Positions 10,354 to 33,078 of a stretch of 47,083 nucleotides of DNA are shown one piece after another. The position numbers and the translations under genes are program-made. The stretch comes from Candidatus Pacearchaeota archaeon (GTDB lineage: Archaea; Nanobdellota; Nanobdellia; Pacearchaeales; GW2011-AR1). The notes under the pieces are model-generated. The model made no database searches, was not told where the DNA came from, and saw only the letters and a program-made list of their open reading frames with translations. The stretch covers positions 1 to 47,083 of the forward strand of contig JAGLYK010000006.1 in NCBI GenBank assembly GCA_023132255.1, given 5' to 3'. Each line of letters opens with the position of its first letter. Positions within the stretch are counted from its first letter, which is position 1.

Positions 10354-12756
10354 ATGAAACCAAAAAAAACAAAAGAAGAAAAAACAGCTGAGAGTTATTT
10401 TCCTGTTGATGAAACTGACTTGAAATACACAACTGAAAAACAGGAAAAAGAAGCTCCTGAAAAAGAAGAACTTCTCAAAGGTTCAATTGAAAAACAATAC
10501 AAAAAACCAGAAAGAGCTTCTTTGGAAACAGTGCACCACGGGCGTACCCCGAAAAATTTTCGTGGAAAATTTTTACAAGGGGCAAAAAAATCAAAAAGAC
10601 CAAGGAAAAAAACTACTGCAAAAAAATTCATTCCGCAAAAAATAAAATTAAAAGAAAAAGGTTATGAATTAATTATCACAGAAAAACCTCAGGCTGCCTC
10701 AAAAATTGCCCAGGCACTTGGAAAAGCAACTCAGAGAGTTAATAACAAAATTTCTTATTATGATGTGAATCGGGATGGGACGCAGATAATTGTTGCGTGC
10801 GCTGTTGGGCATTTGCTGACTTTAAAACAAAATGTTCCTGGTTCTTCTGTCCCGATTTTTGACATTTCATGGACTCCAAATTATCTGGCAAACAAAAAAG
10901 CAGGTTTTACAAAAAGATATTTTGACACTTTGCTGAAACTCGCGAAAAACGCGGGGAGCCTGACAGTCGCAACAGATTATGATGTTGAAGGAGAGGTTAT
11001 AGGAATGAATGTTGTGAAATATATCTGCGGTCAAAAAGACGCGAATCGGATGAAGTTCTCAACTTTGACAGACAAGGAATTAAATGATGCTTATGAAAAA
11101 AAATTTTCTCATATTGATTGGGGGCAGGCAATTGCAGGTGAAACAAGGCATTATCTTGATTGGTTTTATGGAATAAATTTGTCACGGGCTTTAATGAATG
11201 CGATAAAAACAACAGGCAAGTTTCGGATAATGTCAATTGGCAGGGTTCAGGGTCCTGCTTTGAATTTGATTGTTCAAAGAGAGAGGAAGATTCAGGCTTT
11301 CAAATCAGAACTTTATTGGCAGGTTTTTATTAAGGTGAGAAATTCTCATAAATTAGAGCTTAAACATAATAAAGATATATTCAACAAAAATGATTTATCA
11401 AAATTTGAAAATCTAGTCGGAAAAACAGTTGAAGCAAAAACAAAAAAAACAGAACAAATTGTTTCTCCAAATCCTCCATTCAATCTGACAATTCTTCAAA
11501 CAGAAGCTTACAAGTTTTATGGTTTAACTCCGTCAAAAACTCTTCAAATTGCCCAATCACTTTATTTAGCAGGACTAATTTCTTACCCAAGAACTTCTTC
11601 TCAAAAACTTCCTGTTTCAATTGGCTACAAAGAAATTTTAAAAAAACTTGCAAAAGAATACAATGTTGAAAAACTGATTACAAAAGATAAACCAGTTGAA
11701 GGAAAAAAATCAGACCCTGCTCACCCCTCAATTTACCCAACAGGTAACAAACAAATTTTGTCTGGAGATGAAGAAAAAATTTACAATTTAATTGTCAAGA
11801 GATTTTTGTCCTTATTCTGCGATTCTGCAATAATTGACAACAAAACAGTTTCAGTAAATGTGGATAATTTATTATTCATCGCGCGAGGGTCGTCAATTAG
11901 AAAAAAAGCCTGGATGGAAATTTATCCGTCTAAATCTAAACATGTTGAGATTCCTGATTTAGAAGGTGAAGTAAAAATTGTGGATATGAGAACAGAAGAA
12001 AAAGAGACTCAGCCTCCAAGAAGATATTCTCCTGCTTCAATCCTCTCTGAACTTGAAAAAAGAAACCTCGGAACAAAAGCAACTCGTTCTGCAATTCTTG
12101 AAACACTCTACGACAGAAGTTACATAAAAGAAAAATCAATTGAAGCAACACCTTTGGGAATGTCTTTAATTTCAACTCTTGAAAAACATTCCCCAATAAT
12201 AATTGATGAAAAATTAACCCGAAGTTTTGAAGATCAAATGCAATCAATTATAGAAGCAAAGAAAGATTTTTTACAAAGACAAAATTCTGCGAATTTTAAC
12301 TTGTTCTTAAAAGAATTAAGAACAAAAGAAGAAAAAGTTCTTGATAATGCAAAAAAAACTTTGATTGATATTTCAAAAGATTTCAGCAAAAATGAAAAAG
12401 AAATTGGGAGAGAACTTCTTATTGCAAACTTGCAATTAAGAGAACAGCAAAAAATAGAGAACACATTATGTGTTTGTCCTGTCTGCAAGAAAGGAAACCT
12501 TGCGATAACTTATTCAAGAAAAACAAAAAGGCATTTTGTTGCCTGCGACGCTTACCCAAATTGCAAAACAACTTTTAGTCTTCCTCCGGGCACAATTAAA
12601 AAAACAGAAAAAACCTGTGAAAAATGCGGGTTTCCTTTAATGATGAGTTTAAAGAGGGGAAGAAAGCCGTGGATTTTTTGTTTTAACAGAGAGTGTGAAA
12701 GTAACAAAAAGAGAATTGAAGAGTATAGGAAGAAGCAGGAAAGTGTAGCACAATAA
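10354..12756 (+). CDS. topA: DNA topoisomerase I (type IA)
   Basis: TEKP, GHL, ATDYDVEGE, SIGRVQ, ISYPRT (catalytic Tyr), GTKATR, C-terminal Zn ribbons. Confidence 0.96.
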   Translation: MKPKKTKEEKTAESYFPVDETDLKYTTEKQEKEAPEKEELLKGSIEKQYKKPERASLETVHHGRTPKNFRGKFLQGAKKSKRPRKKTTAKKFIPQKIKLKEKGYELIITEKPQAASKIAQALGKATQRVNNKISYYDVNRDGTQIIVACAVGHLLTLKQNVPGSSVPIFDISWTPNYLANKKAGFTKRYFDTLLKLAKNAGSLTVATDYDVEGEVIGMNVVKYICGQKDANRMKFSTLTDKELNDAYEKKFSHIDWGQAIAGETRHYLDWFYGINLSRALMNAIKTTGKFRIMSIGRVQGPALNLIVQRERKIQAFKSELYWQVFIKVRNSHKLELKHNKDIFNKNDLSKFENLVGKTVEAKTKKTEQIVSPNPPFNLTILQTEAYKFYGLTPSKTLQIAQSLYLAGLISYPRTSSQKLPVSIGYKEILKKLAKEYNVEKLITKDKPVEGKKSDPAHPSIYPTGNKQILSGDEEKIYNLIVKRFLSLFCDSAIIDNKTVSVNVDNLLFIARGSSIRKKAWMEIYPSKSKHVEIPDLEGEVKIVDMRTEEKETQPPRRYSPASILSELEKRNLGTKATRSAILETLYDRSYIKEKSIEATPLGMSLISTLEKHSPIIIDEKLTRSFEDQMQSIIEAKKDFLQRQNSANFNLFLKELRTKEEKVLDNAKKTLIDISKDFSKNEKEIGRELLIANLQLREQQKIENTLCVCPVCKKGNLAITYSRKTKRHFVACDAYPNCKTTFSLPPGTIKKTEKTCEKCGFPLMMSLKRGRKPWIFCFNRECESNKKRIEEYRKKQESVAQ
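10533..10583 (+). mobile_element. Intragenic two-hairpin element, copy A (51 nt, in topA)
   Basis: GCACC-ACG-GGCGTA-CCCC-G-AAAAATTTTC-GTG-GAAAATTTTT-ACAA-GGGGC; shares termini with three other copies; mobility is inferred. Confidence 0.75.
12281..12325. repeat. Second double-hairpin segment in topA
   Basis: AAAATTC-TGC-GAATTTT (12281-12297) and perfect TTGTTCTTAA-AAGAA-TTAAGAACAA (12301-12325). Confidence 0.5.
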
Positions 12757-12787
12757 TTCTTAAAAACAGCCCCTATTTAAAACAAGC

Positions 12788-13108
12788 ATGGATTTAGAAG
12801 ATAAATTTTACCGTAATGTTGAAGGAATATTCTTCAAGAAATTAGGATCATATGGGTTTTCTCAAGAAGAGGCAGAAAAAATCGCCCCTCAACTAACAGA
12901 CTATGTTAAAGCATCTATACATCAAAACCAAAGTCAACATGTTCCAATCAAAGGATTAAAAAGAGAATATTTGGTTTATATAGATGGTAAAGGAACAGTC
13001 ACAAAATCTCTTCCAGCACTTTCTACTACACGTTCTCCAAGTTCAATTAAACCACCAATAACTTTAAACCCTAATAAAATATTAGATTACCGCCCCCCAC
13101 TTATATAA
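12788..13108 (+). CDS. Hypothetical protein
   Basis: 106-aa ATG ORF between topA and radB. Confidence 0.55.
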   Translation: MDLEDKFYRNVEGIFFKKLGSYGFSQEEAEKIAPQLTDYVKASIHQNQSQHVPIKGLKREYLVYIDGKGTVTKSLPALSTTRSPSSIKPPITLNPNKILDYRPPLI

Positions 13109-13121
13109 AAAATCCGAGTAA

Positions 13122-13853
13122 TCAAATCCAGCCCTTTTTTCTAATTCCCTGTTCAACAATCTCAAAACTAAATTCTTTTTCAGGCAAACTCCGATGCTTT
13201 AGCAAAATCGCCTTTCTCCTGCTTCCATTTTTCTTTAGTTCAATTATGCACTTGCTCCAGTATTTCATTAAATCCCCTCCAACAATATTAACTTCTCTTT
13301 CTTTGCCCTGTTTCCAATCTTCCTCACTTTGAAATCCTGAATAAACCTGATTTGTAATAATAACTGGAATCTTCTGTTTTCGCGCAATTTCAGCCAAAGT
13401 CCTCATCTGTTTTGCAATTTCACGATTTACTTTCTTGATGCTGTCAGATTTTTTCGATTTAATCGCATCCCCCAACTCCAATCTATACAACATTGCCATA
13501 CCATCAATAATAATCAAACTAACATGATTTTTCTTCACTTTATCCAGCAACTTCAAAAAACACTTTTTTTGCTCCTCAAAATTCACAGGCTCCAGCAAAA
13601 AAATATTTTCCAAAACCTTTTCACAATCGTCACCGACAATCTGCTTAATCCTGTCAATAGAAAATCCTCCTTCTGTATCAACAAAAATAATCTTGTTGGC
13701 TTTTTTCGCCTGACTGCAGCAAACTAAAAAACACAAATTCGTCTTCCCGCAACCAGGAGGCCCGGCAATCATTGTAATCACATCCTTCTCATAACCCTGG
13801 TCAAGCCATTTAGTAAAATCCAAACTTCCTGTAGAAATTTTATTCTCACTCAT
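13122..13853 (-). CDS. radB: DNA repair/recombination protein RadB
   Basis: GPPGCGKT, DTEGGFS.DR, TNQVY, VGG, KHR motif diagnostic of RadB. Confidence 0.92.
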   Translation of the reverse strand: MSENKISTGSLDFTKWLDQGYEKDVITMIAGPPGCGKTNLCFLVCCSQAKKANKIIFVDTEGGFSIDRIKQIVGDDCEKVLENIFLLEPVNFEEQKKCFLKLLDKVKKNHVSLIIIDGMAMLYRLELGDAIKSKKSDSIKKVNREIAKQMRTLAEIARKQKIPVIITNQVYSGFQSEEDWKQGKEREVNIVGGDLMKYWSKCIIELKKNGSRRKAILLKHRSLPEKEFSFEIVEQGIRKKGWI

Positions 13854-13911
13854 AAATAATAAAGAAGACTGATGTTAATAAGTATTATGATACTACTTTA
13901 ACTTGCAAATT

Positions 13912-14172
13912 TTACATTCTCTTAAAATCAGCTAAGGTTGTATCTAAATCTTTTGCAATAAAACTAACAGCATCAGTAATAGCTTTCTTTGCTGTTTTGG
14001 CTTTGGTCTTTACTTTCAAAATAGGTTTTTCTGTTGGGTGCTTTCTTTTCCACGCCGCAAAATCAACAGCAGAATCCTTGTTCAAATAAACCCTGAGAAT
14101 CTCCGCAATTGTCAAACTTTCAATTTCAACTTCAATTTCATCCTTTGAACTTTTTAAAATATTAATTTCCAT
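13912..14172 (-). CDS. rpoL: RNA polymerase subunit Rpo11 (L)
   Basis: Size and T.AEILR..L...V.FAA....HP motif. Confidence 0.85.
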   Translation of the reverse strand: MEINILKSSKDEIEVEIESLTIAEILRVYLNKDSAVDFAAWKRKHPTEKPILKVKTKAKTAKKAITDAVSFIAKDLDTTLADFKRM

Positions 14173-14206
14173 AATAAATTAGAATAAAAACAATTTAAAA
14201 AGCTTG

Positions 14207-15097
14207 TCATTTTCCAAAAATAATTTTATCAATATCTTCCTGAGAAAGATTCTCTTTATCTAAATCAATTTTCTTGCCCTTAGTAAACATTTCCTCGGGA
14301 AATGTTTCAGGGTACGCCTGAGGCCTCTGTCCTCGGAGGTCATCCCTGTGGGATGGTGCACCAACTTTCCCTTCAGGTTCACTAAAAATCTTTTCTTCCT
14401 TCTTTTTTTTCATCTCCTGCAAATCAGCAATTGTCAAGGTTTTTGTGGTTGTATCATCAAATTTAATTTTATCTTCCTCAACATTTTGTAAAAACTCTTC
14501 TTTAACTTGATTTACTTCTTCATCAAAAGACACAACCCTTGCTGATTCATTTTTAATTCTAATCCCCAAATAATTCTCAATTTTATTTACTAACACAAAA
14601 TCATTTTTAGGGAGAACACCTTTCTCGGCCATGTTGATTGCTTCTTCAGATTCTTCAATCGTTTCTGCAAATTGCTTTTGAGTCAGCTTCTTGGCCCTCC
14701 TCGCTCTCATAATAATCCAGTGAAAATTATCAACCATTCCAAAAGATTTTTCTCCAATGGAGCCCAAAACATTCTTGCTGAAATTTTTGCCCTCACCAGA
14801 GGGTACTTTGTTAGAGGTTCTCGCACCCTTTGGGTATACACCAAGGCCTTCATCTTCAGAGGTCATCCTTGTGGGAGGCGGTGTTTCTTTCTCACTTTTT
14901 ATTTCAATTCCGGATAAACGAGAGAGCCGTTCATAAACCGTGGGTCTCTTTTCAGTTTTCTCTTTCAAATATTTTATAATAGGAATATTCTCTTCAAAAG
15001 AACATTTCCGGCAAATTTTAACAATTCCTTTTTCAGAAACAGCGTCAAAAAGCAAAGCTCTGTCTCCTGAAACCCCGCACTTAAAACATTTATTCAT
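14207..15097 (-). CDS. MBF1-like Zn-ribbon + XRE HTH protein
   Basis: CFKCG...CRKC; IMRARRAKKLTQKQFAE...AEKG; contains two in-frame element copies. Confidence 0.8.
   Translation of the reverse strand: MNKCFKCGVSGDRALLFDAVSEKGIVKICRKCSFEENIPIIKYLKEKTEKRPTVYERLSRLSGIEIKSEKETPPPTRMTSEDEGLGVYPKGARTSNKVPSGEGKNFSKNVLGSIGEKSFGMVDNFHWIIMRARRAKKLTQKQFAETIEESEEAINMAEKGVLPKNDFVLVNKIENYLGIRIKNESARVVSFDEEVNQVKEEFLQNVEEDKIKFDDTTTKTLTIADLQEMKKKKEEKIFSEPEGKVGAPSHRDDLRGQRPQAYPETFPEEMFTKGKKIDLDKENLSQEDIDKIIFGK
14276..14359 (-). mobile_element. Intragenic two-hairpin element, copy B (84 nt)
   Basis: Sense strand GCACC-[36 nt]-GGCGTA-CCCT-G-AAACATTTCC-CGA-GGAAATGTTT-ACTA-AGGGC. Confidence 0.75.
14789..14884 (-). 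mobile_element. Intragenic element, copy C (96 nt, composite)
   Basis: Sense strand ACACC-[loop similar to copy B]-GGTGTA-TACCC-AAA-GGGTG...GTACCCTC-TGGT-GAGGGC. Confidence 0.7.
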
Positions 15098-15142
15098 TAT
15101 AAAAAAAGAAAAAGAGCATTTTTTAAGATTGTTGTGGTGGAG

Positions 15143-15796
15143 TTAATCAAGATGCTCCCTAATATCCTCAACACCCCCAATAGCTGTTAACTTAATTTTT
15201 TCATCAATCAAAATAGTAGGTAATTCAGTAATATTATATTTATCCAAAAGCAAATTAATTGAACCAATATTGTTGTCTGCTGCTATTGGGATTAGCATAA
15301 TTTCTGCTTTTTTCTCTTCCTTTATCTGAAAAAGTAAATTAGAAAAAACTTTTTGCTTTGCTTTTTTCTCAATTGAAACATCATTATATTGATAAAAATA
15401 AACTAAATTATGATAGTCTGAATTGCACTTTTCTTTTATCTTCATGCTGTTAATCCAGAATAAAGTTCTTAAAAGGTCATACCTTTTATGCTGCAAGATT
15501 ATATCATCATTAATTCTGTTTGCTTTTTCATATTTATTTATAATCATTGCTTCCTCATAAATTCTATCTGCAAAATTTATATTCTCTTCAACCATTGCGT
15601 CACAATTTAATTCAAGAAATTCAAACGCATCTTTTTGTATTCTTTGGTCTAAAAGTTCTATTTCAGATTGAAGATACCAATTATTTATCTTATCAATTCT
15701 GGAGGTTTCTAATTTATAACCGAGGAATATTCCAATATTAAAAATAACAAAAGCTATTATCAATGCCTGCAAAAATACATATTTTTGATTAGCCAT
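15143..15796 (-). CDS. Membrane-anchored protein with thioredoxin-like C-terminus
   Basis: N-terminal TM helix; C-terminal YNITELPTILID pattern. Confidence 0.6.
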   Translation of the reverse strand: MANQKYVFLQALIIAFVIFNIGIFLGYKLETSRIDKINNWYLQSEIELLDQRIQKDAFEFLELNCDAMVEENINFADRIYEEAMIINKYEKANRINDDIILQHKRYDLLRTLFWINSMKIKEKCNSDYHNLVYFYQYNDVSIEKKAKQKVFSNLLFQIKEEKKAEIMLIPIAADNNIGSINLLLDKYNITELPTILIDEKIKLTAIGGVEDIREHLD

Positions 15797-15905
15797 TTTA
15801 ATTTATTAAATTGGATAATGGAAATTTTATATTTACTTTAGTCATTTTTTCTTTTTGTATTTAAATAAATGAGTTATGCAAAATCTTTTGATTTTAGTTT
15901 AGTCA

Positions 15906-17135
15906 TTATCTCCACTTGCCTGTTCCCCTAAAAAAATGATAAAGAGCCACTATCATAATAAAAGGATATATTGCAAGATAAACCAATGAATAAAAGAAGA
16001 TATTAAAAAAGTTTTGTTTTTTCAAAATCCTCTCTTTCATGACAAATAAAGCCAAAAGAGTAAAAATAACCCCTGCAATAAATAAAATAATTCCTAAATA
16101 ATTCAGAAAACTTGGAGTTACAAAAAAATCATTCATAGTCAATAAAGGTGTTCCGACGCTAATTGAGTATTTTGCGAAAACATAATTTCTTAAAACTCTT
16201 GTTGTAATCAAATAAACGAAAATACTCAAACCTAATAAACCCAAGAAAAGCTGCAGCATAAAAAAAGGAAGTATAAAAAACCCTAACATGCCTTTTGTCA
16301 AAAAACACTTTTTATATTTTGATATGCATTGCAAACCTCCTATGTTCCATCTTTTTCTTTGGTTATACCATGCCTTAAATTTATTGGGAACAGTTGTTGT
16401 AGCATGAGTTGCCAGGCACATCCTCCTCGTATAACCTGCATAAGTCAGGTGCCAGGTGGCTTCAATATCCTCTGTCATGTTATTAGGATCAAAACCCCCA
16501 ATTTCCTTTAATGCAGATTTCCTGTACAGTGCCAAGGGTCCCGGAGTAACATAAATAGCGTCGACATAATCCAAAAGTTTTCTTGTAAAAGCAATTATGT
16601 TGTATTCAATCACCTGCAATTTCTCAAAAAATTTATTCCTGTTTCTCGGAGAAAAAACACAGGTTACAGCCCCGACTTTGTCATCATCAAAAAAACCAAT
16701 CATTTTTCCAAATGAACCTTTAGTAGGATAACTATCTGCGTCAACAACTGCCACAAGCTCGGCTTTTGCTTTTACCAGTCCAAAATTCAACGGGGCTGCT
16801 TTGCTGCCTTCATTTTTTTTTGTATAAACCTTAACCTTGCTATATTTTTTTTCTAACATCCTGGATATTTTCAAAGTATTATCTGTGCTTCCGTCATCAA
16901 TAACCAACACTTCTTCCAAGTTCTCATAACCTGCATTAAGAATCGCCAGAACAGTATTTTTAATTGTTTTTTCTTCATTAAACGCAGGAACTATTACAGA
17001 AATAGAATATTGTTTTTTAGATTCAGGATATTTAAATAATTCCTTCCTGTTTCTTCTATATAACAATAAAAATAAAGAAAGAAAATAAATTGACACAAAC
17101 ATATATGCCAGGTAAATTATCGGGAGTGTTTCCAT
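15906..17135 (-). CDS. Processive GT2 glycosyltransferase (PgaC/cellulose-synthase-like)
   Basis: VPAFNE, DDGSTD, DAD, TED, QRKRW motifs with flanking TM helices. Confidence 0.92.
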   Translation of the reverse strand: METLPIIYLAYMFVSIYFLSLFLLLYRRNRKELFKYPESKKQYSISVIVPAFNEEKTIKNTVLAILNAGYENLEEVLVIDDGSTDNTLKISRMLEKKYSKVKVYTKKNEGSKAAPLNFGLVKAKAELVAVVDADSYPTKGSFGKMIGFFDDDKVGAVTCVFSPRNRNKFFEKLQVIEYNIIAFTRKLLDYVDAIYVTPGPLALYRKSALKEIGGFDPNNMTEDIEATWHLTYAGYTRRMCLATHATTTVPNKFKAWYNQRKRWNIGGLQCISKYKKCFLTKGMLGFFILPFFMLQLFLGLLGLSIFVYLITTRVLRNYVFAKYSISVGTPLLTMNDFFVTPSFLNYLGIILFIAGVIFTLLALFVMKERILKKQNFFNIFFYSLVYLAIYPFIMIVALYHFFRGTGKWR

Positions 17136-17284
17136 GCTATTGTTTGGGAGATTGAGGTTTTAAAGATTTTTGTGATTTGATGAAGAAGCAAGAAATGAAT
17201 TGTGTAAGTTACATTTAGAACCTCCCGGGAATTCAACTTTCAAACATTTAAGATCCCTGATTTATGCTCTCACAAGCATGCCTT

Positions 17285-19081: not shown

Positions 19082-19136
19082 AGGGGTAAAAGAAATAAGA
19101 AGTTTTTAAAATTATCTTAAGCATGCAAGTCTATTT

Positions 19137-19673
19137 TTAAACTTCCTCCTTAAACCTTTGCCCTAATTCAGAATCAGCAACATTAAAATAATCATAAAAA
19201 TCATCACTCAAATTTAATTCGTGAGTATGCCCTATTTTTTTCTTTTTAATTAACCCAAGTTCAGCAAATTTCTTCACATGCTCATATGCCTTGTTTCCAC
19301 GAATCTTAATCACAACTGACTGCTTTATGGGCTGCTTGAACGCAATTATTGCCAGAGTTTCCTGCTCTGCCTTTGAGAACTCAGCACTTCCTGTCGCCAA
19401 TTTATTTATTATCCCGGAATATTCCTGCCTCACATCCATTTTCCATAAACTATTTTTTTCTACAATTTCCATAGCTGACTCTTGTTTCTCATATTTATCT
19501 TTTAATTTATCAATCAGCTCATTAATTATTATCGGATTTAAATCACTAAGAGAAATTAATTCCTGCATATTCAAAAACCTGCCAGACACAAAAAAAACAG
19601 CCTCAAGTTTTTTCAAATCCTGTTTTTCTCTTGCTTCATCTATTTCCTTTAAGGTTTTGCTTGTCATCACCAT
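19137..19673 (-). CDS. scpB: SMC-Scp complex subunit ScpB
   Basis: LEAVFFVSG, ETLAIIAFKQPI, IRG motifs. Confidence 0.9.
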   Translation of the reverse strand: MVMTSKTLKEIDEAREKQDLKKLEAVFFVSGRFLNMQELISLSDLNPIIINELIDKLKDKYEKQESAMEIVEKNSLWKMDVRQEYSGIINKLATGSAEFSKAEQETLAIIAFKQPIKQSVVIKIRGNKAYEHVKKFAELGLIKKKKIGHTHELNLSDDFYDYFNVADSELGQRFKEEV

Positions 19674-19744: not shown

Positions 19745-20248
19745 ATGAAAAAGAAAATCCTAATCCCTCTTTTAATAATTCTCTTATTTGTCTTTACATT
19801 ATTTTTAATTCGTTTAACTTCTCCTCGGGAAATAGATGATGTTTCTCCTGAAATTCTTTGTGAACAGAAATATTTAGAAAAATCAGATATTCTTTGGATA
19901 ATCCCAAAATTTAATAACAAATCAATTTCAGAAAACAAAACATGGTGTCAAAAAATTTTAAGCTTAAACAAGACACTTGGCTTGCATGGAGTTTATCATG
20001 AGTTTGAAGAATTTAATACAAACAGAAATCAAAAATATTTGCAAGAGGGAATAAATATTTTTGAAGAGTGCTTTGGATTTAAACCAGAAATGTTTAAACC
20101 ACCGCAATTAAAAATTAGCAATGAGAATAAAAAATTAATAAAAGGAAATAATATGAAATTAAAATTAAATTTTAATCAATTAACTCATAAAGTTTATCAT
20201 TGTGATGATTCTGGAACTTTTCCAAATTGGGTTGTTGATTTGTTTTAA
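19745..20248 (+). CDS. Polysaccharide deacetylase-like (DUF2334-like) membrane-anchored protein
   Basis: N-terminal TM; IDDVSP, LHGVYH, FKPP motifs. Confidence 0.65.
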   Translation: MKKKILIPLLIILLFVFTLFLIRLTSPREIDDVSPEILCEQKYLEKSDILWIIPKFNNKSISENKTWCQKILSLNKTLGLHGVYHEFEEFNTNRNQKYLQEGINIFEECFGFKPEMFKPPQLKISNENKKLIKGNNMKLKLNFNQLTHKVYHCDDSGTFPNWVVDLF

Positions 20249-23413: not shown

Positions 23414-23449
23414 AATCTAGGAAAAGAAATAGTGTTTATAAAATATTAG

Positions 23450-23875: not shown

Positions 23876-23943
23876 AAAAAATTCATATCTTTTATCTTTT
23901 TAAGAATTATTGTTCTACAAACTCCACTTTAAATTTTCTAGGT

Positions 23944-26313: not shown

Positions 26314-26364
26314 ATATTTTTACCATCAAGAAACTTTTAAAAACTATCTATCTATAAAATAATC

Positions 26365-26526
26365 ATGGCTCAAGATACACAAGTCCAGATGCCCGGCGGA
26401 TTCGGCGGGTTAATGAGGTTCAGCGAAGAATACTCAAGCAGGTTCAGTTTAAAACCAACGCATGTAATTGTATTTATAATTTTGATAATTGTTTTTAGAT
26501 TTTCCTTGGGGGTGTTTTTTGGTTAA
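26365..26526 (+). CDS. secG: Preprotein translocase subunit Sec61beta (53 aa, missing from ORF track)
   Basis: MPGGFGGLMRFSEE...LKPTHV followed by one TM helix. Confidence 0.88.
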   Translation: MAQDTQVQMPGGFGGLMRFSEEYSSRFSLKPTHVIVFIILIIVFRFSLGVFFG

Positions 26527-26527
26527 A

Positions 26528-26857
26528 ATGTTTCCAGGAATGAACCCAAAAAAAATGCAGGCAGTTATGAAGCAAATGGGAATCTCGCAGGACGAGATTG
26601 ACGCTTCAAGAGTTATAATTGAAAAAACAGACAGCACCAGAATAATTATTGAACCTGTTTCTGTGACAAAAATAAAAATGCAGGGACAGGAAACTTTTCA
26701 GATTGCAGGGGAAATCAGGGAAGAAACTTCTGCTCCTGAAATTTCTGAGGAAGATATAAAAACAGTTATGGAAAAAACCAATAAATCTGAAGAAGAAGTG
26801 AGAGAGGTTTTGGAAAGAACAGGGGATTTGGCAGAGGCGATTTTGGAGTTGAGTTGA
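26528..26857 (+). CDS. nac: Nascent polypeptide-associated complex protein
   Basis: MNPKKMQAVMKQMGI, FQI.G, C-terminal GDLAEAILEL; start reassigned to ATG 26528. Confidence 0.92.
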   Translation: MFPGMNPKKMQAVMKQMGISQDEIDASRVIIEKTDSTRIIIEPVSVTKIKMQGQETFQIAGEIREETSAPEISEEDIKTVMEKTNKSEEEVREVLERTGDLAEAILELS

Positions 26858-26902
26858 AAGTTGTTTGTTTACTTTTTTTCTAAAAAAGAAGATGCTTTGT
26901 GA

Positions 26903-28180
26903 TTAAGATTCTCTTACTACAAATTCATTCATTGAACAAAAAGTAGTTCCAAAATCGTCTTTTGAAGTTGCGGAATAAAATACATTCCCTCCAGAATCTC
27001 TTGAAGTTGCATCAACATAATAATATTTTTTCCCGTTGTGAGTTACATAACGCTCTGAACCGCCTAAAGTAATTCCATCAACATAAAGAATCCCGACGAT
27101 TGCGTGATAAGAAGTATAATCATGACAAGGTCCAACTAAATAGTGGGCATCGTAGCCAATTTCTCTTAATAACGCTGTCGCCATAACTGCGCTATCTGCA
27201 CAAAGCCCTTCTTTTTTGACAATTGTTTCCATTGGGAAATTTGCCCAATCTGGTAAAGGTTTATCGAAATTTAGTTTTGTGTAATCATAATTAAAAGAAC
27301 GGGAAAATGCAATAGTCATCATTAATTTATCTGCATCATTATATCCTTCTGCATTTGCTAATTGATTCATTATTTGAGCAACTTCTTCTAATTGCGGGTC
27401 TTTTCGATTAATTAAATTTTCTTTGGGCATATTTTCATAAGATGAAATAACATCTTCACTAATTTTTATTTCAAAATTAAGGTTTTGTGGGAACGGACAA
27501 AATCCCCAAATACAATTTTTTCCATAGTACCAATCATAATTAATGTTGTCTGGCAAATATTCAAAAAGAGGGTGATTGTCATAACCATCTAAAACTGTAT
27601 CTCCATCTGTGTCTGGATTATATCTGTCTGTGCCTTTTTGTATTTCCTCATAATCAAAGAAAGCATCGTTGTCGCTGTCGTCTGGTTCGCAAGAATGCTC
27701 TTGGCTATTACAAGTATAATATTGGGGGCAAGATTTATCTTGATATTTTATATCATTTATACAACAATCAAAAGGACATTCAGGTTTAACACATTTGTTT
27801 AAATTTGCATCACAAACTAAACCATTTGAACAACCAGCATCTATACAACAAGTTTCGCTCGTTTCTCCTTCGTCTTTGTATCCATCTCCACAAACAATTG
27901 TATAACATCCTAAATTATCTGATTTTGTTCTATCAGGAAAACAAATTTGGTCAGATTTACAAACACATTTTGAAGGAGTATTTTGGCAATTTTCTCCTTT
28001 ATTATATTTACAAGAAGCATCCTCTTCAAATAAACTCCAAGAAGATTTTTTTGATTCTTCTCCACTTGTTGTAGAAGAAGAATTGCTTGGTTGATAAATA
28101 AAAAATAAAACAATAAGAAAAACAATAATAACAACACTTCCTGCAATATACCAAATATTATTCTTTTTCTTTTTAGCCAT
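26903..28180 (-). CDS. Membrane-anchored Cys-rich transglutaminase-like protein
   Basis: N-terminal TM, Cys-rich repeats, DSDND/DTDGD Ca-binding-like motifs, GLCAD...HA...VDAT triad. Confidence 0.75.
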   Translation of the reverse strand: MAKKKKNNIWYIAGSVVIIVFLIVLFFIYQPSNSSSTTSGEESKKSSWSLFEEDASCKYNKGENCQNTPSKCVCKSDQICFPDRTKSDNLGCYTIVCGDGYKDEGETSETCCIDAGCSNGLVCDANLNKCVKPECPFDCCINDIKYQDKSCPQYYTCNSQEHSCEPDDSDNDAFFDYEEIQKGTDRYNPDTDGDTVLDGYDNHPLFEYLPDNINYDWYYGKNCIWGFCPFPQNLNFEIKISEDVISSYENMPKENLINRKDPQLEEVAQIMNQLANAEGYNDADKLMMTIAFSRSFNYDYTKLNFDKPLPDWANFPMETIVKKEGLCADSAVMATALLREIGYDAHYLVGPCHDYTSYHAIVGILYVDGITLGGSERYVTHNGKKYYYVDATSRDSGGNVFYSATSKDDFGTTFCSMNEFVVRES

Positions 28181-28315
28181 CTTAAATTAATAGAGAACTA
28201 AAAGTTTAAAAGTTTATCTTTTTCTTTTCTTGGGTTTTCTAAAAATTGTATCTAACTAATTACCAAACTTGATGAGGGCAGTAATAAAATTAAAAGAACT
28301 TAAACCCAAAAATTA

Positions 28316-28891
28316 CTATCTCCAATTCCTTTTAAGACCTTGTCTTTCTTTTATTAAATCTAATAATTTAGAAGTAAACACAAAATCCAAATTATCTAAA
28401 TTTTTCGGATAAAGTGAAATAAACTCAACATCATTTGTTTTATATAATTTCTTTTTATAATCGTAACTTTTGTTTTTATACTCTTTATTGTCTATCATGC
28501 CCCAATATTCAACAAATACTTCAAATTCTGGCAAGAAAAAATCTGGTTCAACCTTGACTGAAAGAAAAGGGATTGTAATACCAAAAAAAGTTTTGTTTAA
28601 TTTAATAACAGGGTGATGACGATAAATTATGTTCTTTCTTTTAAAATAGTTCGCGATAATTTCTTCTTTTTGTGAATCATAATGATTTTTCTTATATGGT
28701 TTGATTATTTCATATTTTCTTTTTGTTTCTCCTATAAATACTAAAATTGAAAATATTATAAATAAGTAACCAAACCCTTTAATTGCTTCTATCAAATCTT
28801 TTTGTTTTGAAAAAACCATTAACAAACCTATAAGAAAAAAGAATATTGCTCCTTGCTGTCTTGTTGAAAGTATTTTAAGGAATTTTCCCAT
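28316..28891 (-). CDS. Two-TM protein with PD-(D/E)xK-like nuclease domain
   Basis: S..E..IA.Y, PDFFL...VEYWG, Y..K. Confidence 0.65.
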   Translation of the reverse strand: MGKFLKILSTRQQGAIFFFLIGLLMVFSKQKDLIEAIKGFGYLFIIFSILVFIGETKRKYEIIKPYKKNHYDSQKEEIIANYFKRKNIIYRHHPVIKLNKTFFGITIPFLSVKVEPDFFLPEFEVFVEYWGMIDNKEYKNKSYDYKKKLYKTNDVEFISLYPKNLDNLDFVFTSKLLDLIKERQGLKRNWR

Positions 28892-29020
28892 GTTATTTTG
28901 TTATATTTTTGATTATATAAATTTATTGAAATGAATTTCAATTTGTATTTACTTTAACCTCAAAATAATTTCTTCTTCCACCACCAACAAATATAATAAT
29001 TCTAAACACTTCTAAATAAT

Positions 29021-29203
29021 ATGGTAATTAAAAGAAAAACCTTAAATGCCTTTCATGCGACTTCCATGAGTGTTATAAAAAGTCGCACACCTGAACAAAA
29101 AGAGAAGGTTAAGCCGAGCGATTTCGTGGTAGGGACAAATGAAAATAAATCCCCCGTGCGAAGTCGGGAGTTAAGGAAACCGCAGGTGTCCTCGCATGGA
29201 TAA
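29021..29203 (+). CDS. Small upstream ORF carrying a copy of the tRNA-repeat hairpin cargo
   Basis: ATG ~22 nt after AATATATAA; overlaps next ATG; codons PSDFVV...RELR coincide with the repeat at 29115-29179. Confidence 0.45.
   Translation: MVIKRKTLNAFHATSMSVIKSRTPEQKEKVKPSDFVVGTNENKSPVRSRELRKPQVSSHG
29115..29179 (+). repeat. Dispersed copy of the hairpin cargo of the tRNA-linked unit (reverse complement of 6571-6637)
   Basis: First 21 nt identical (CGAGCGATTTCGTGGTAGGGA), then AAAATAAAT..CCCGTG.GAAGTCGGGAG.TAA.GAAA. Confidence 0.88.
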
Positions 29204-29654
29204 ATTCCTTGAAAATCTTGAAGAAGCACACAAGATAATCTCCATTGCTGACCACATGCTTTATGTAACCTTTCCTTTGATTCAAGACAAAAAACTTTTG
29301 TTAAAAATTCTACTAGACACAAAAATTGCAATTTCCAAGTGCATTAGTTCTGTCCTCCAATACGAATATCTTTACAAAAGAATAAAACTTTGCAATGACC
29401 CAAAAACAAATTTCAGGACATTTACAGAAAAATGTGCCAAGAGATATAATATTACAGAACAAGAAATTAGATTAATCGCGGAATTATTTGATGTTGTAGA
29501 AGAGCATAAAAAAAGTTCAATGGAATTTATGAAAAATGAAAAAATTGTAATTCTTTCCCAAAATTTACAGCAAAAAATAGTAACAATTGAAAAAGTCAAG
29601 GAATTTTTAATATTAGCAAAAAATATTTTGGAAAAAATTAAAAAAACAGTTTAA
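29196..29654 (+). CDS. Conserved hypothetical helical protein (ADHxLYV motif)
   Basis: IADHMLYVT; motif shared with the next gene. Confidence 0.75.
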   Translation: MDKFLENLEEAHKIISIADHMLYVTFPLIQDKKLLLKILLDTKIAISKCISSVLQYEYLYKRIKLCNDPKTNFRTFTEKCAKRYNITEQEIRLIAELFDVVEEHKKSSMEFMKNEKIVILSQNLQQKIVTIEKVKEFLILAKNILEKIKKTV

Positions 29655-29670
29655 AGAGAACTTTTTCCTG

Positions 29671-29781
29671 TAACTTTGCTCTTTTGTTTTTGTGAAGTTG
29701 CCTAGTAAACCTTTTGTGTTGTTGTTTATCCTGAATTCTTAGGAAATCAACTTTGCAAAAATAGAATAGCAAAGTTGCCTA
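29671..29781 (+). repeat. Pair of inverted 30-nt palindromes (REP/BIME-like or long RNA hairpin)
   Basis: 29671-29700 matches the reverse complement of 29748-29777 at 24/30; both are followed by CCTA. Confidence 0.7.
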
Positions 29782-29841
29782 AAGATAAATATAAAAAGCC
29801 TCTGTTCCTAATGGGGTATAGTTCTAATTCATTAGATTAAC

Positions 29842-30282
29842 ATGGAAGAAATAATTCAGGAAAAAATAAGTGCAGACCATCTCCTTTATGTTAGCTTAAA
29901 ATATACAAAAACCTGTGATGTGATACTAAACCTCATTCGAAGGTGGAGGAGAATGATTGAAGTGAGTATCAACGAAATATTAAAACACGCCGAGAAAAAA
30001 AAGAAAATATCTTCAGTTCCTTTGAATCCCATAGGAAAAATAGAAGAGGTAAAAAAATTATTCAAGAAGAATAAAGATTTCTTGCAAGTCATAGAAATGT
30101 ATGAGATGTTCAGAAAAATTGAAGAATTAAAAAAAGAACGAACAGGCGAGTTCAGGAAAAACGTTAACTTGAAAATATTTTACAGAGGGAAAGAAATAAA
30201 TGTAAATTTGGAACAACTAAAAATATATGCAGAAATGTTGGAAAAGTTTATAAGTACAACAAAGCAATTTCTTCTATTATAA
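29842..30282 (+). CDS. Conserved hypothetical helical protein (ADHxLYV motif)
   Basis: SADHLLYVSLKYTKTCDV...EFRK. Confidence 0.75.
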   Translation: MEEIIQEKISADHLLYVSLKYTKTCDVILNLIRRWRRMIEVSINEILKHAEKKKKISSVPLNPIGKIEEVKKLFKKNKDFLQVIEMYEMFRKIEELKKERTGEFRKNVNLKIFYRGKEINVNLEQLKIYAEMLEKFISTTKQFLLL

Positions 30283-30299
30283 AGATTATATTCTTTAAA

Positions 30300-31076
30300 A
30301 TGTCAAAAATAATTGTCATTACATCTGGTAAAGGGGGTGTTGGAAAAACTACCTCTGCAATAAATCTAGGAGCAGCCATAAATTATTTTGGTAAAGACTC
30401 ATTAATTATCGACGGAAATCTCTCCACACCAAACATTGGAATCCATTTAAATTCCCCAGAAGTCCCGATAAATCTAAACCATGTGTTGTTAAATAAAGCA
30501 GAACCTTTCGAGGCTGTTTATGAACATGAATCAGGAATAAAAATCATGCCCTCATCTTTATCAATAAAAGAACTGAAAAAAATACAGCCAAAAAAAATAA
30601 AAGATTTTAAAAAAGATTTTAAGGAACTTTCAGAATATATTATTATTGACAGTGCTGCAGGACTTGGCGATGAAGCAATATCTGCAATTGAAATAGCTGA
30701 TGAATTAATAGTAGTTACAAATCCTGAAATGCCTGCAATCACTGACGCATTAAAAACAATCAAGATTGCAGAGCAGTTAAAAAAACCAGTCAAAGGAGTG
30801 ATAATAACAAGAGTCAAAAAAAATAAAATAGAAATGCCCCCTGAAACAGTAAAAGAAATGCTGGAAACCCCTGTTCTTGGAATGGTTCCGGAAGACATAG
30901 ATATTCAAAAATCCTTAAGTCTGCGGGACACTGTTGTCCATACTTTTCCAAAAAGCAAGTCAGCAAGAGCATACAAGGAAATTGCAGCAAGAATTTTAGA
31001 TGTAGAATATGATTCTAAAAAAGACAGGGAAAAATTAATTAAAAGAGTTCTTCAAAAGCTGGGATTAAGTAGTTAA
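30300..31076 (+). CDS. minD: MinD/ParA-family ATPase
   Basis: SGKGGVGKTT, IDS.AG, TNPE..AITDA, amphipathic C-terminal tail. Confidence 0.9.
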   Translation: MSKIIVITSGKGGVGKTTSAINLGAAINYFGKDSLIIDGNLSTPNIGIHLNSPEVPINLNHVLLNKAEPFEAVYEHESGIKIMPSSLSIKELKKIQPKKIKDFKKDFKELSEYIIIDSAAGLGDEAISAIEIADELIVVTNPEMPAITDALKTIKIAEQLKKPVKGVIITRVKKNKIEMPPETVKEMLETPVLGMVPEDIDIQKSLSLRDTVVHTFPKSKSARAYKEIAARILDVEYDSKKDREKLIKRVLQKLGLSS

Positions 31077-31412
31077 TCACTTGATTTTACTACCAACTTC
31101 AACATCTTTATCTGGTTTAATTAATTTGACTTTTGATTCATCGTTGCTAACAGAAGCTAAAACCATTCCCTGACTTTCAATTCCCCGCAATTTCCGAGGA
31201 GCAAGATTTACAAACAAAATTATTTTTTTACCAACTAATTCTTCTTTTGAATAATAAGCTTTTAAACCAGCACAAACAGTTCTTTTTTCAGAACCAATAT
31301 CCACAAAAAGTTTGAAAAGTTTGTCAGCACCTTTAATGTTTTCAACTTCCAAAATTTTTCCAACTCTTAAGTCAAGTTTTTCCCAATCTTCAAAATTAAT
31401 TATGTTTTCCAT
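31077..31412 (-). CDS. Stand-alone tRNA-binding OB protein (MetRS C-domain/Trbp111-like)
   Basis: LDLRVGKI, ADKL, NLAPRKLRGIESQGM. Confidence 0.9.
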   Translation of the reverse strand: MENIINFEDWEKLDLRVGKILEVENIKGADKLFKLFVDIGSEKRTVCAGLKAYYSKEELVGKKIILFVNLAPRKLRGIESQGMVLASVSNDESKVKLIKPDKDVEVGSKIK

Positions 31413-31619
31413 TTAAACAAACACCCCATAATATTTAAGAGATATTAATGGCTCTAATCTCGGAACATGATCTCTTTGAATTTTTTGAAAACCATTATCT
31501 TGTGAATAAAGTCTTTTCAAATACCTTATTTCTATTCCCTCTTTATTAACTTCTTTTTCTAATTTTTTTAAGGATGAATTAAAATTCAGAGAATTTTCGC
31601 TTTCTAATTCTTTTTTCAT
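31413..31619 (-). CDS. Small hypothetical protein (68 aa)
   Basis: ATG at 31619 just after the metG stop; its stop abuts the OB-protein ATG. Confidence 0.45.
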   Translation of the reverse strand: MKKELESENSLNFNSSLKKLEKEVNKEGIEIRYLKRLYSQDNGFQKIQRDHVPRLEPLISLKYYGVFV

Positions 31620-31620
31620 T

Positions 31621-33078
31621 TCATATTTTCTTAAAAAGAATTTCACTCTTTTTAATCTTTGTTGCACTAAACTGCTTTTTAATTTTTTCGGCACTTTCCG
31701 GAATAAATGGCCAAAGCAAATCAGCAATTTTTAAGATTGACTCTTTTAATTCATAAAGAACTTTTTTATCTCTAGTTTCCCACGGCTTTTTATTCTGAAC
31801 ATATTCATTACAAATATCAATAAAACTAAAAATTTCATTTAATACTTTATCAAATTCATAATTCTCAAAAAGTTTTTCAATTTTTGCCTCATTTAATTTT
31901 TTTAATAATTTATTTTTGCCCCCGAATACTCCATCCTGCATATCAAGGGGTACACCCTTGGGTGCAGATTTACTAATTCCAAATTTTTCAATAAGTCCGG
32001 AAACCCTTGAAACCAAGTTCCCTAATTTATTCGCGAGTTCATTATTATGCCTATCAATCAAAGCTTGCTCTGAAAAATCTCCGTCATCCCCAAAAGGCGT
32101 TTCTCTTAAAAGAAAATACCTGATTGAATCAACATTTCCGGTAATAGATATTAATTCATTCACATTGATTACTTTCCCTCGCGACTTTGAAATTTTCTTT
32201 TTATTAAATGTCCAGTATCCGTGAACAAAAATAGTTTTAGGGAGTTTGATTCCAGCAGACATTAACATAGTTGGCCAGATAACAACATGAAACCACATGA
32301 TATCTTTAGCAACAATATGCAAATCAGCGGGCCAAAATTTTGAAAATTTTTTATCATCTTTTAAATAACCAACCCCAGTAAGATAATTCAAAAGTGCATC
32401 AAACCAAACATAAGAAATATGTTTGTTATCAAAAGGCAATTTAATCCCCCAATTAAAACTTGTTCTTGAAATACTTAAATCCTGCAAATCCTCTAAACGA
32501 TTAATAATTTCTTTAACCCGAAACTTAGGCAATATAAAGTTAGGATTATCTTTATACAATTTTAAAAGCTTCTTTTTATATTTTGATAATTTAAAAAAAT
32601 AACTTTTTTCTTTTAATTTTTCTGCTTTTGTTTTATGTATTGGGCAACATCCATCAACTAAATCTCTTTCAGTATAATATGCCTCGCAACCCGTGCAATA
32701 AAGTCCCTCATATTCTCCCAAATAAATATCTCCTTTATCAAAAACTTTCTGCAGAATTTTTAAAACAACTTTTTCATGATCTTTTTCTGTTGTTCGAATA
32801 AACCGGTCATAATCAATATTTAGTTTTTTCCACGCATTCTTGAACTCAGGAACTAATTCATCAACAAACTCCTTTGGATTTTTTGTTTTTTTCTTAGCAG
32901 CAGTTTCAATTTTTTTCCCATGCTCGTCAGTTCCTGTCAAATAAAAAACATCTTCTCCTTTGAGTTTATGCCCCCTGGCAATTACATCGCCAACTATGGT
33001 TGTGTATGCGTGGCCCACATGCGGGATATCATTTGGATAATATATCGGGGTTGTAACATAAAATTTTTTCCTTGCCAT
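31621..33078 (-). CDS. metG: Methionyl-tRNA synthetase (single-knuckle, bacterial-like core)
   Basis: TTPIYY..PHVGH, GTDEHG, C..CE...CPIH, YVWFDAL, KISKS. Confidence 0.95.
   Translation of the reverse strand: MARKKFYVTTPIYYPNDIPHVGHAYTTIVGDVIARGHKLKGEDVFYLTGTDEHGKKIETAAKKKTKNPKEFVDELVPEFKNAWKKLNIDYDRFIRTTEKDHEKVVLKILQKVFDKGDIYLGEYEGLYCTGCEAYYTERDLVDGCCPIHKTKAEKLKEKSYFFKLSKYKKKLLKLYKDNPNFILPKFRVKEIINRLEDLQDLSISRTSFNWGIKLPFDNKHISYVWFDALLNYLTGVGYLKDDKKFSKFWPADLHIVAKDIMWFHVVIWPTMLMSAGIKLPKTIFVHGYWTFNKKKISKSRGKVINVNELISITGNVDSIRYFLLRETPFGDDGDFSEQALIDRHNNELANKLGNLVSRVSGLIEKFGISKSAPKGVPLDMQDGVFGGKNKLLKKLNEAKIEKLFENYEFDKVLNEIFSFIDICNEYVQNKKPWETRDKKVLYELKESILKIADLLWPFIPESAEKIKKQFSATKIKKSEILFKKI
31918..31965 (-). 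mobile_element. Intragenic two-hairpin element, copy D (48 nt, in metG)
   Basis: Sense strand GCACC-CAAG-GGTGTA-CCCC-TTGATAT...GTATTC-GGGGGC. Confidence 0.75.

Follow-up and report, generated by a model that had tools for sequence, protein, structure and literature searches.

The window analysed here, a 47,083-nucleotide stretch of contig JAGLYK010000006.1 from a Candidatus Pacearchaeota archaeon (GCA_023132255.1), carries topA, metG and a gene for a zinc-ribbon plus HTH_3 protein resembling MBF1, and within these three genes lie four short GC-rich, hairpin-forming islands. The host genes and islands are as follows.

10354..12756 (+), host gene topA (800 aa).
10534..10584 (+), element A, type T1 (51 nt), in topA at aa 61-77, upstream of the Toprim domain (Pfam, aa 105-236); head CACC ACG GGCGTA at 10534-10546, tail hairpin CCCC..GGGGCA at 10547-10584.
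14207..15097 (-), host gene for the zinc-ribbon plus HTH_3 protein (MBF1-like, 296 aa), carrying elements B and C.
14275..14358 (-), element B (84 nt), a head with module X in its loop (X about 14319-14352) plus a T1-type tail hairpin (14275-14312), in the C-terminal tail of the MBF1-like protein (aa 247-274).
14788..14883 (-), element C (96 nt), a head with module X (about 14842-14875), a Y-like module (14802-14827) and a short tail hairpin (14788-14803), between the zinc ribbon and the HTH of the MBF1-like protein (aa 72-103; HTH_3 at aa 129-179).
31621..33078 (-), host gene metG (485 aa).
31917..31964 (-), element D, type T2 (48 nt), in metG at aa 372-387, in the linker between the catalytic and anticodon-binding domains (Pfam tRNA-synt_1g ends at aa 359 and Anticodon_1 starts at aa 392); head 31951-31964, tail hairpin 31917-31950.

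A preliminary description had placed these islands at 10533-10583, 14276-14359, 14789-14884 and 31918-31965, and its observation is confirmed. On the mRNA strand each island contains the shared frame RCACC..GGYGTA..CCCY..RGGGC followed by AA, three of the four are preceded by T, and A and B carry different 10-bp stems with 3-nt loops, as had been described. The core GGYGTACCC occurs 3 times in the window against 0.09 expected from 100 shuffles. Two corrections are required. Gaps in orthologues place the inserted unit one base to the right, as CACC...GGGCA, with its length unchanged, and the two-hairpin architecture attributed to all four holds for D-type copies only, as the first hairpin is not predicted in A. 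Predicted folding energy is unremarkable for three of the four islands (z = -0.42, +0.24 and -0.91), with only B standing out at -2.98.

The islands belong to a dispersed family with at least 41 copies in this 625-kb, 32% GC genome (hereafter G000) of a Woesearchaeota-type archaeon. The core motif gives 39 hits in the genome, of which 38 lie in a long sense ORF, and a head pattern gives 41 element-like copies in 37 ORFs, all open through the element; hosts include uS2, uS3 and MetRS. The head pattern is carried by 7 of 41 relatives and by 38 of 401 genomes of the order, all in one taxonomic family labelled Woesearchaeota, Nanoarchaeota or Pacearchaeota, while a reversed-pattern control gives 1 hit. 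Near-identical copies occur in different genera with a patchy distribution, and 37 of 38 exact T1 matches in species-representative genomes carry archaeal labels (Woesearchaeota, Nanoarchaeota, Pacearchaeota, "uncultured archaeon" or "archaeon"), which fits the earlier suggestion of a DPANN origin.

Conservation is at the nucleic-acid level. Element A is read CAC CAC.., whereas B, C and D are read GCA CC.., and the 33-nt module shared by B and C (module X) is read in two different frames. Across the genome, frame use relative to CACC is 32, 7 and 2 copies in the three frames. In an alignment of 45 T1 copies, 92.2% of cells are paired and seven of 15 pairs change on both sides, giving a covariation score of 0.202 against 0.071 in shuffles (0 of 500 as high), with all slid controls scoring lower. 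Such compensatory stem changes could, however, arise from template switching within quasi-palindromes rather than from selection. The bases next to the stem are invariant (G11 T12 A13, then CCC).

Alignment to orthologues, which had been proposed as a test, shows that copies are clean presence/absence indels between sister genomes. Element D is a clean 48-nt gap in 4 of 4 orthologues aligned, from the related genomes G001, G002, G003 and G004. Element A is present in G002 together with an additional 33-nt module, but G003, G008 and G004 lack this copy. Element B is absent from G002 and G003, a larger composite sits at the same 3' boundary in G001, and a metagenome contig replaces 14276-14405 by the empty-site sequence. 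Element C is absent from the orthologues of G001, G002, G003, G008 and G004. Boundaries are unambiguous at four further copies (G000 C20, G002 C23, G002 C21 and G002 C15), filled/empty pairs show no duplicated bases, and the ends CACC.. and ..GGGCA are not inverted repeats, so that the terminal inverted repeats and target-site duplication of a MITE in the strict sense are both lacking. In 83 flank sites, position -1 is a purine in 80 and position +1 is A in 70.

Occupied sites often carry different element types, or extra 33-nt and 42-nt modules, in close relatives. The PheRS-beta site holds type T3 in G000 and T1 in G002 and is empty in G001, G003, G008 and G069, and the MBL-hydrolase site holds three forms and is empty in G004. 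The 42-nt module is flanked by GTACC direct repeats, a deletion between CAAGGG repeats leaves a 9-nt remnant (G002 C32 against G000), and one copy is nested inside the loop of another (G000 C5).

Of 117 simple copies with open flanks, 96 are divisible by three and open through the element and only 3 carry an in-frame stop, although 24% of sense frames of the elements contain one. These statistics, which are drawn from sequence alone, point to selection for translation through the element, so that the copies are most likely translated. Gene-breaking copies sit in accessory genes (Bro-N-like and HicA-like). Antisense copies are missing and intergenic copies nearly so, yet this is not explained by stop codons, since 117 antisense and 123 sense frames are open of 162 each, nor by flank preference, which predicts 14-23% antisense and 10-11% intergenic copies. 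Orientation follows transcription, not replication.

No HUH, GIY-YIG or other enzyme was found that tracks the elements, and no transposition event or intermediate was seen. The only HUH gene is an ordinary IS200-type transposase that fits the IS200 model (85.4 bits, cut-off 55) and not the RAYT model (39.5 bits, cut-off 80); no element lies next to it and its own end hairpins do not resemble the elements. A Y1 transposase was found in 7 of 10 element-bearing genomes against 10 of 36 others, in genomes that are 68-91% complete. TnpB was found in 0 of 5 genomes and reverse transcriptase in 0 of 1.

What, then, are these elements? The favoured reading (probability about 0.75) is a lineage-specific family of small (30-96 nt and longer composites), non-autonomous, hairpin-based DNA elements that insert into, and are exchanged within, protein-coding genes of Woesearchaeota-type archaea. 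The analysis itself establishes the unit CACC-(3-4 nt or module)-GGYGTA-CCCY-(variable hairpin)-RGGGCA between a purine and an A, its lack of terminal inverted repeats and target-site duplication, its presence or absence at orthologous sites, the maintenance of its hairpin through compensatory changes, its reading in three frames, and the near-universal restriction of surviving copies to stop-free, sense insertions divisible by three, which would add short Pro/Gly-rich segments that in the four window copies fall in tails and interdomain linkers. Translation of these segments is an inference, as is the route of insertion, which could be a structure-specific, single-strand (peel-and-paste-like) or site-specific recombination mechanism acting on one strand with fixed polarity and following the direction of transcription. 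In this view purifying selection would then remove copies that break the frame, and resident copies would be replaced or remodelled by gene conversion or by re-insertion at the same site. The preliminary interpretation, a non-autonomous mobile element or a segment removed or skipped at RNA level, is thus partly supported: its mobile half is well supported, although transposition is inferred rather than observed, while removal or skipping is disfavoured.

Removal or bypass at RNA level, as a new kind of small archaeal mRNA intervening sequence, would account for the sense-only orientation, since only sense copies could be processed, and IStrons offer a precedent for sense-only insertion made harmless by splicing (PMC4227781). 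Exact removal of CACC..GGGCA would also restore the frame of the few copies that break it, namely L193/L097 (stop in a Trbp111-like gene), L190 and L177 (stop, same site in a Bro-N-like gene), L217 (49 nt) and L251 (50 nt). An efficiently excised segment would, however, not be under the length and stop constraint observed, and the frame-breaking copies lie in accessory or toxin-like genes or on low-coverage contigs, with an in-frame ATG following the stop in L190. The flanks are not complementary, and 30-96 nt is too small for a ribozyme intron. No bulge-helix-bulge motif is present: the archaeal motif has two 3-nt bulges, each 3' of a central 4-bp helix, at the two junctions, whereas in the covariation-supported fold the unpaired bases lie 5' of the 4-bp CCCC/GGGG helix on both strands, the mirror image of that motif. 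This reading is therefore unlikely, but on present evidence it is not excluded, since no RNA run contains the stretch and a handful of copies would need removal to keep their host ORF intact. Also improbable is that the elements are not transposons, with growth of GC-rich quasi-palindromes in place by replication slippage or template switching, followed by spread among genes through ectopic gene conversion between shared heads and tails. The exchange of types and modules at one site, the GTACC repeats, the 9-nt remnant and the fact that no transposase was found are consistent with this, but gene conversion needs a resident homologous copy and cannot create the many clean first insertions at unrelated sites with identical ends, and the near-identical copies in different genera and the nested copy also argue against it.

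A role for the elements as RNA or DNA structures, for example in translational pausing at domain boundaries or as protein binding sites, is not exclusive of a mobile origin and draws on the covarying hairpin, the coding, sense positions and the location of the window copies in tails or linkers. It is doubtful, since presence varies between sister genomes for the same essential gene, content at a site is not conserved, hairpins would form in either orientation, predicted stability is not above shuffles for 3 of 4 window copies, and several copies lie inside Pfam domain envelopes (amidase aa 42, deoxyhypusine synthase aa 184 and GluRS aa 225). A selected peptide motif is the least likely reading. 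The majority frame does give Ala-Pro-x-Gly-Val-Pro or Ala-Pro-Gln-Ala-Tyr-Pro, but the other two frames are used in 9 of 41 G000 copies and 31 of 79 metagenome copies, stem changes are compensatory at the nucleotide level and alter the peptide, and module X is read in different frames in B and C.

The family is best read as an archaeal counterpart of the Rickettsia palindromic elements (RPE), which the preliminary description had also named as precedent, and of intragenic REPs, with an unusual link to the direction of transcription. The Rickettsia elements are dispersed palindromic repeats in a small AT-rich genome that sit in frame inside unrelated housekeeping ORFs and are taken to be translated (PMC10969869), and the tRNA pseudouridine synthase B gene is a host in both Rickettsia (PMC3733652) and the archaeal family (G000 C39 and G002 C23). 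Judged on features other than direct sequence comparison with RPEs, the present family differs in being archaeal, 30-96 nt rather than about 150 bp, modular with nested hairpin modules of 33 and 42 nt, read in three frames rather than giving one conserved peptide, and subject to rapid exchange of types at one site, with a YGTA rather than CGTC tag next to the stem. REP elements with a GTAG or CGTC tag share a short GC-rich stem-loop directly next to a conserved tetranucleotide, some lie inside genes, and CGTC-type REPs also lack a dedicated transposase (PMC3733652). Here, however, the tag is C/TGTA followed by CCCC, an extra CACC box lies upstream, almost all copies are intragenic and sense whereas REPs are mostly extragenic, and no RAYT was found.

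Non-autonomous elements derived from IS200/IS605 (palindrome-associated elements) likewise have no terminal inverted repeats or target duplication, subterminal hairpins, strand-specific, polar insertion next to a short target and seamless presence/absence. The purine|A target is much weaker than the fixed 4-5-nt targets of IS200/IS605, the ends do not resemble the resident IS200 copy, and, among genomes of the completeness given above, Y1 transposase was not found in 3 of 10 that bear the elements. GC clusters and byp elements of yeast mitochondria (PMC8811140) are GC-rich palindromic mobile clusters in a very AT-rich genome, some inside coding sequence, but they are organellar, and byp elements are skipped by the ribosome and need not be divisible by three, whereas here length and stop statistics point to ordinary translation. 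In Nematomorpha mitochondrial genes, strong inverted repeats are kept inside translated genes, but both arms encode conserved parts of the protein and the repeats are not dispersed insertions (PMC6649704).

No published description of the archaeal family was found, and it would be the first described archaeal (DPANN) counterpart of the Rickettsia palindromic elements, showing that extreme genome reduction in two domains of life led to the same outcome, in which selfish hairpin DNA takes refuge inside essential genes and adds peptide segments to them. The near-total restriction to the sense strand of genes points to an insertion mechanism tied to transcription. A more speculative possibility, considered unlikely but not excluded, is a new class of coding-strand-specific mobile elements whose insertion or survival is mechanistically coupled to transcription, either through a hairpin-recognising enzyme acting on the displaced non-template strand or through an RNA-level step that only sense copies can undergo; either way they would colonise only the sense strand of expressed genes, with occupied sites behaving as exchangeable cassettes. 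In practice these elements create lineage-specific insertions in ribosomal proteins, aminoacyl-tRNA synthetases and topoisomerases that could be mistaken for phylogenetic signature indels in DPANN, and they inflate divergence in alignments and disturb binning by composition. They also give a natural map of positions in essential proteins that tolerate 10-30-residue insertions.

The four GC-rich islands reported in the preliminary description are all present at the positions assigned to them and read on the mRNA strand as described, and this observation is confirmed. Their hosts are topA (800 aa), which carries element A, a zinc-ribbon plus HTH_3 protein (MBF1-like, 296 aa), which carries B and C, and metG (485 aa), which carries D. 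The core GGYGTACCC occurs three times in the window, against 0.09 expected from 100 shuffles. The window is contig C36 of a 625,210-base, 39-contig genome with 32.3% G+C (hereafter G000). Within this genome the motif GG[CT]GTA-N0-3-CCC gives 39 hits, of which 38 carry the whole frame (CACC .. GGYGTA .. CCCY .. RGGGC, then A) and lie in a long sense ORF, while the 39th, on contig C10, has none of the other features. A head pattern finds 41 element-like copies in 37 ORFs, and a BLAST sweep adds degenerate ones. A possible decayed fifth copy in the window lies at about 12256-12303 (+), corresponding to topA aa about 635-650, where TopA of G000 and of its sister genome G002 has a further 16-residue insertion that is absent from the related genomes G003, G008 and G004. 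This insertion is AT-rich, and 17 nt resemble the 3' arm of a T1 tail.

The family is modular. A head (CACC, 3-4 nt, GGYGTA) is followed by one of several tail hairpins closed by CCCY/RGGG and ending in CA. The types are T1 (51 nt, with an AT-rich 10-bp inner stem), T2 and T2b (48 nt), T3 (33 or 39 nt) and a short form (30 nt). Two further modules, X (33 nt) and Y (42 nt, flanked by GTACC on both sides), occur inside heads or loops, and one copy, on G000 contig C5, is nested in the loop of another. Of 54 simple copies in G000 and G002, 50 have lengths divisible by three. The other four read through in frame, so the search pattern probably cut them wrongly. Outside coding sequence, three intergenic copies of a conserved sequence of about 56 nt (loci L036, L037 and L038) were found in G000, each behind an AT-rich stretch and followed by variable sequence:

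Contig C7, about 30452-30470 (-), conserved intergenic sequence
Contig C7, about 39895-39913 (-), conserved intergenic sequence
Contig C34, about 20160-20178 (+), conserved intergenic sequence

Nineteen of its bases resemble module X, and it may be an unknown small RNA and a possible relative or source of that module. No Rfam family matches these X-like sequences at E <= 1, and within the window Rfam returns nothing at gathering score except two tRNAs. In L037 (224-308, contig C7) a weak tRNA-like match (19.6 bits) lies next to a real tRNA-Gly(GCC); it has D and anticodon arms and then an X-like stretch where the variable/T arm should be, and may be a decayed tRNA copy with an inserted module. 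In L038 (118-250, contig C34) a tRNA gene has a long variable arm and a 52-nt intron after the anticodon loop, and this intron is unlike the elements.

Conservation is at the nucleic-acid level. Relative to CACC, the 41 G000 copies use the three frames 32, 7 and 2 times, the 79 clearly placed metagenome copies use them 48, 27 and 4 times, and module X is read in different frames in B and C. The tail hairpin was examined in an alignment of 45 T1 copies (42 distinct) from G000, G002 and named MAG records. In this alignment 92.2% of cells form a standard pair, 7 of 15 pairs change on both sides (51 cells), and the covariation score is 0.202, against 0.071 +/- 0.008 in shuffles (0 of 500 as high), with all six slid controls lower. 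However, the sequences are related, and template switching within quasi-palindromes can also make both arms change together. Predicted folding energy is unremarkable for A, C and D, where stability is not above shuffles, and the first hairpin is not predicted in T1 copies. The structural claim therefore rests on covariation of the T1 tail only.

Comparison of orthologous sites reveals presence and absence of individual copies. D is a clean 48-nt gap in the related genomes G001, G002, G003 and G004, although MetRS of G008 (locus L024, contig C83) carries an unrelated insertion of about 60 residues at the same interdomain linker. B is absent from G002 and G003, whereas G001 has a composite several times longer that ends at the same 3' boundary. 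C is absent from all five orthologues examined. A is present in G002 with an extra 33-nt X module and is absent from G003 and G004, and G001 has another T1 copy elsewhere in the MBF1-like gene. A comparison of metagenome contigs with the window was noisy, and joints with short sides were ignored; the single usable item is a contig of a related population that replaces 14276-14405 by the sequence of the empty B site. Nearly the whole of G002 (TopA 94% identical) was then compared with G000 at all sites. An automatic gap search gave many meaningless long gaps, and only clean cases were used. Filled/empty pairs with unambiguous boundaries are found on G000 contig C20 and G002 contigs C23, C21 and C15, and metG and the G001 copy are consistent with them. 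Together they show that the unit is CACC...GGGCA, placed after a purine and before an A with no base duplicated, which is the segment of the preliminary description shifted by one base. One site, in PheRS-beta, fits either register. In 83 distinct flank sites, position -1 is a purine in 80 and position +1 is A in 70, and the following bases are A-rich.

Occupied sites also turn over. By inspection, 16 sites are occupied in both G000 and G002, of which about 4 carry the same element, 6 differ by a module or a loop segment, 5 carry different tail types and 1 differs by paired stem changes. Two sites show this over more genomes, including the relative G069. The PheRS-beta site holds T3 in G000 and T1 in G002, and is empty in G001, G003, G008 and G069. 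The MBL-hydrolase site holds the short form in G000, G069 and G008, T1 in G002 and G003 and a composite of about 170 nt in G001, and is empty in G004, a pattern that does not follow relatedness. Internal deletions between short direct repeats also occur, and one on G002 contig C32, compared with G000, leaves 9 nt.

The head pattern is found in 7 of 41 relatives (28 hits in G000, 27 in G002, 16 in G003, 9 in G001, 7 in G008, and two single hits), while the reversed control gives 0. Across the order it is found in 38 of 401 genomes, all in one taxonomic family, f1 (37 of 355 without G000), against 0 of 45 in eight other families. It occurs in 22 of 153 genera, and the control gives 1 hit in total. 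An exact 21-nt T1 pattern, searched in one genome per species, finds 38 stretches, of which 37 carry archaeal labels (Woesearchaeota, Nanoarchaeota, Pacearchaeota, ‘uncultured archaeon’ or ‘archaeon’) and one lies on a 2.1-kb contig labelled Omnitrophota. The same pattern finds 86 stretches in metagenome contigs, 80 of them retained as loci. In viral contigs neither a T1 pattern nor a T2 pattern gave any match.

Of 33 host proteins scanned, 27 have a Pfam family. These include proteins of aminoacyl-tRNA synthesis (LeuRS, MetRS, GluRS, CysRS, PheRS-beta, GatB and a GatA-like amidase), ribosomal proteins (uS2, uS3 and eS6), DNA enzymes (GyrA, TopA and a Toprim protein), RNA modification proteins (TruB/Cbf5, Trm5, a PP-loop ATPase and a radical-SAM protein) and others such as deoxyhypusine synthase, PEP-utilising enzyme and STT3. 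The four window copies lie in a tail or an interdomain linker, while others lie inside Pfam envelopes. The LeuRS (1027 aa; locus L145, G000 contig C3:37364-40444) carries two elements, near aa 820 and aa 957, and also has a Ser_hydrolase / alpha-beta-hydrolase match at aa 265-412, inside the synthetase between the catalytic core and the editing domain. A diphthamide-synthesis-like ORF that carries two elements (locus L163, G000 contig C13:8119-8499, and G002 contig C49) is only 127-134 codons long in both genomes and matches only the first 59 positions of the Pfam model, so that the gene may be split or truncated.

The orientation of the copies is strongly biased. In G000, 39 of 41 copies are clearly sense, 2 are ambiguous and none is flagged antisense. 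In G002, after four head matches that are not element-like were dropped (contigs C3 +5605, C24, C28 and C41 -7646), 31 of 34 are clearly sense, 1 is ambiguous and 2 are flagged antisense, although both of the latter proved on inspection to be sense, in a TruB-like ORF and in a 104-aa ORF. Of 89 copies on metagenome contigs, 79 are clearly sense, 9 are ambiguous and 1 is flagged antisense. Among those inspected, which leave out four ambiguous copies (L178, L194, L234 and L248), five are sense, three of them with an in-frame stop, and one (L203) is intergenic and lies opposite to both neighbouring genes. Orientation flips with the host gene within 1.3 kb (contig C3: +, -, +) and therefore follows transcription, not replication. 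The elements have as many stop-free frames in antisense (117 of 162) as in sense (123 of 162). A flank weight matrix predicts 14-23% antisense and 10-11% intergenic sites; it was built from sites that are themselves in coding sense context and is thus biased towards explaining the orientation, but it still does not explain it. About 11% of the genome is non-coding by the ORF calls used. The strand and location bias is therefore real and unexplained. Frame-breaking sense copies survive in accessory genes whereas no antisense copy was seen in any gene, which argues weakly for a mechanistic rather than a purely selective cause.

Given this placement, are the elements translated or removed? Of 117 simple copies with open flanks on both sides, a count that leaves out 39 copies with short flanks, 96 are divisible by three, open through the element and consistent with read-through, and 2 are divisible by three with an in-frame stop. 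A further 9 are divisible by three but the automatic choice of flanking frames did not fit read-through, and two of these were recognised as copies at gene ends (G000 contigs C11 +31855 and C13 -27323). Eight were not divisible by three by the search pattern but fitted read-through, and are taken as cases of wrongly set pattern boundaries, while 2 were not divisible by three and have a length that only exact removal would reconcile. In total 3 of the 117 have an in-frame stop, whereas 24% of sense frames of the elements contain one. The exceptions are a Trbp111-like gene (L193, the same sequence as L097), a Bro-N-like gene (L190 and L177), a HicA-like gene (L251) and one low-coverage contig (L217). 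In the Bro-N-like gene, two organisms carry different T1 variants at the same site (L190 about 2312-2359 (+), and L177 on the - strand, 279 nt from the contig end), each with a stop codon in the hairpin loop. In L190 an in-frame ATG follows directly, so the element may split the gene into two ORFs. This is what insertion followed by purifying selection predicts, and an efficiently removed segment would not predict it. No bulge-helix-bulge motif is present. A search of sequencing runs found four DNA runs of one study and no RNA run containing the stretch. Translation therefore remains an inference. The interpretation in the preliminary description, which offered either a mobile element or a segment removed or skipped at the RNA level, is partly supported.

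Searches for a responsible enzyme did not identify one that tracks the elements. G000 has one Y1 (HUH) transposase gene (148 aa; locus L029:1438-1884, contig C18:24425-24769), which is of the IS200 type and not a RAYT. It has two upstream hairpins, its end hairpins are unrelated to the elements and its flanks are unlike them, and part of its upstream region recurs at the start of G002 contigs C6 and C16. This transposase looked promising at first, as it occurs in 5 of 5 element genomes among the first 41 relatives against 10 of 36 others, but it was then found in only 2 of 5 further element-rich genomes. A TnpB/Cas12f-like domain was found in 0 of 5 genomes and reverse transcriptase (RVT_1) in 0 of 1. 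However, the genomes are 68-91% complete, so a miss is not proof of absence.

Full-text literature searches returned no description of such elements in Woesearchaeota or DPANN. The list of archaeal MITE hosts in one review has no DPANN member (PMC10969869), while a survey mentions a Woesearchaea genome with 105 conserved MITEs per Mb, without details in the main text, which may or may not include this family (PMC11602168). The closest precedent is the Rickettsia palindromic elements, with in-frame translated insertions in housekeeping genes (PMC10969869). Next are the tagged REP families, some of them intragenic, of which the CGTC type has no dedicated transposase (PMC3733652). The lack of inverted termini and of target duplication, together with the hairpins, recalls IS200/IS605-derived elements. 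Hairpin elements of this general kind are known, and what is described here is a real, abundant family that lives in archaeal coding sequence and is most likely translated, distinguished by near-exclusive sense-strand placement and by cassette-like turnover at occupied sites.
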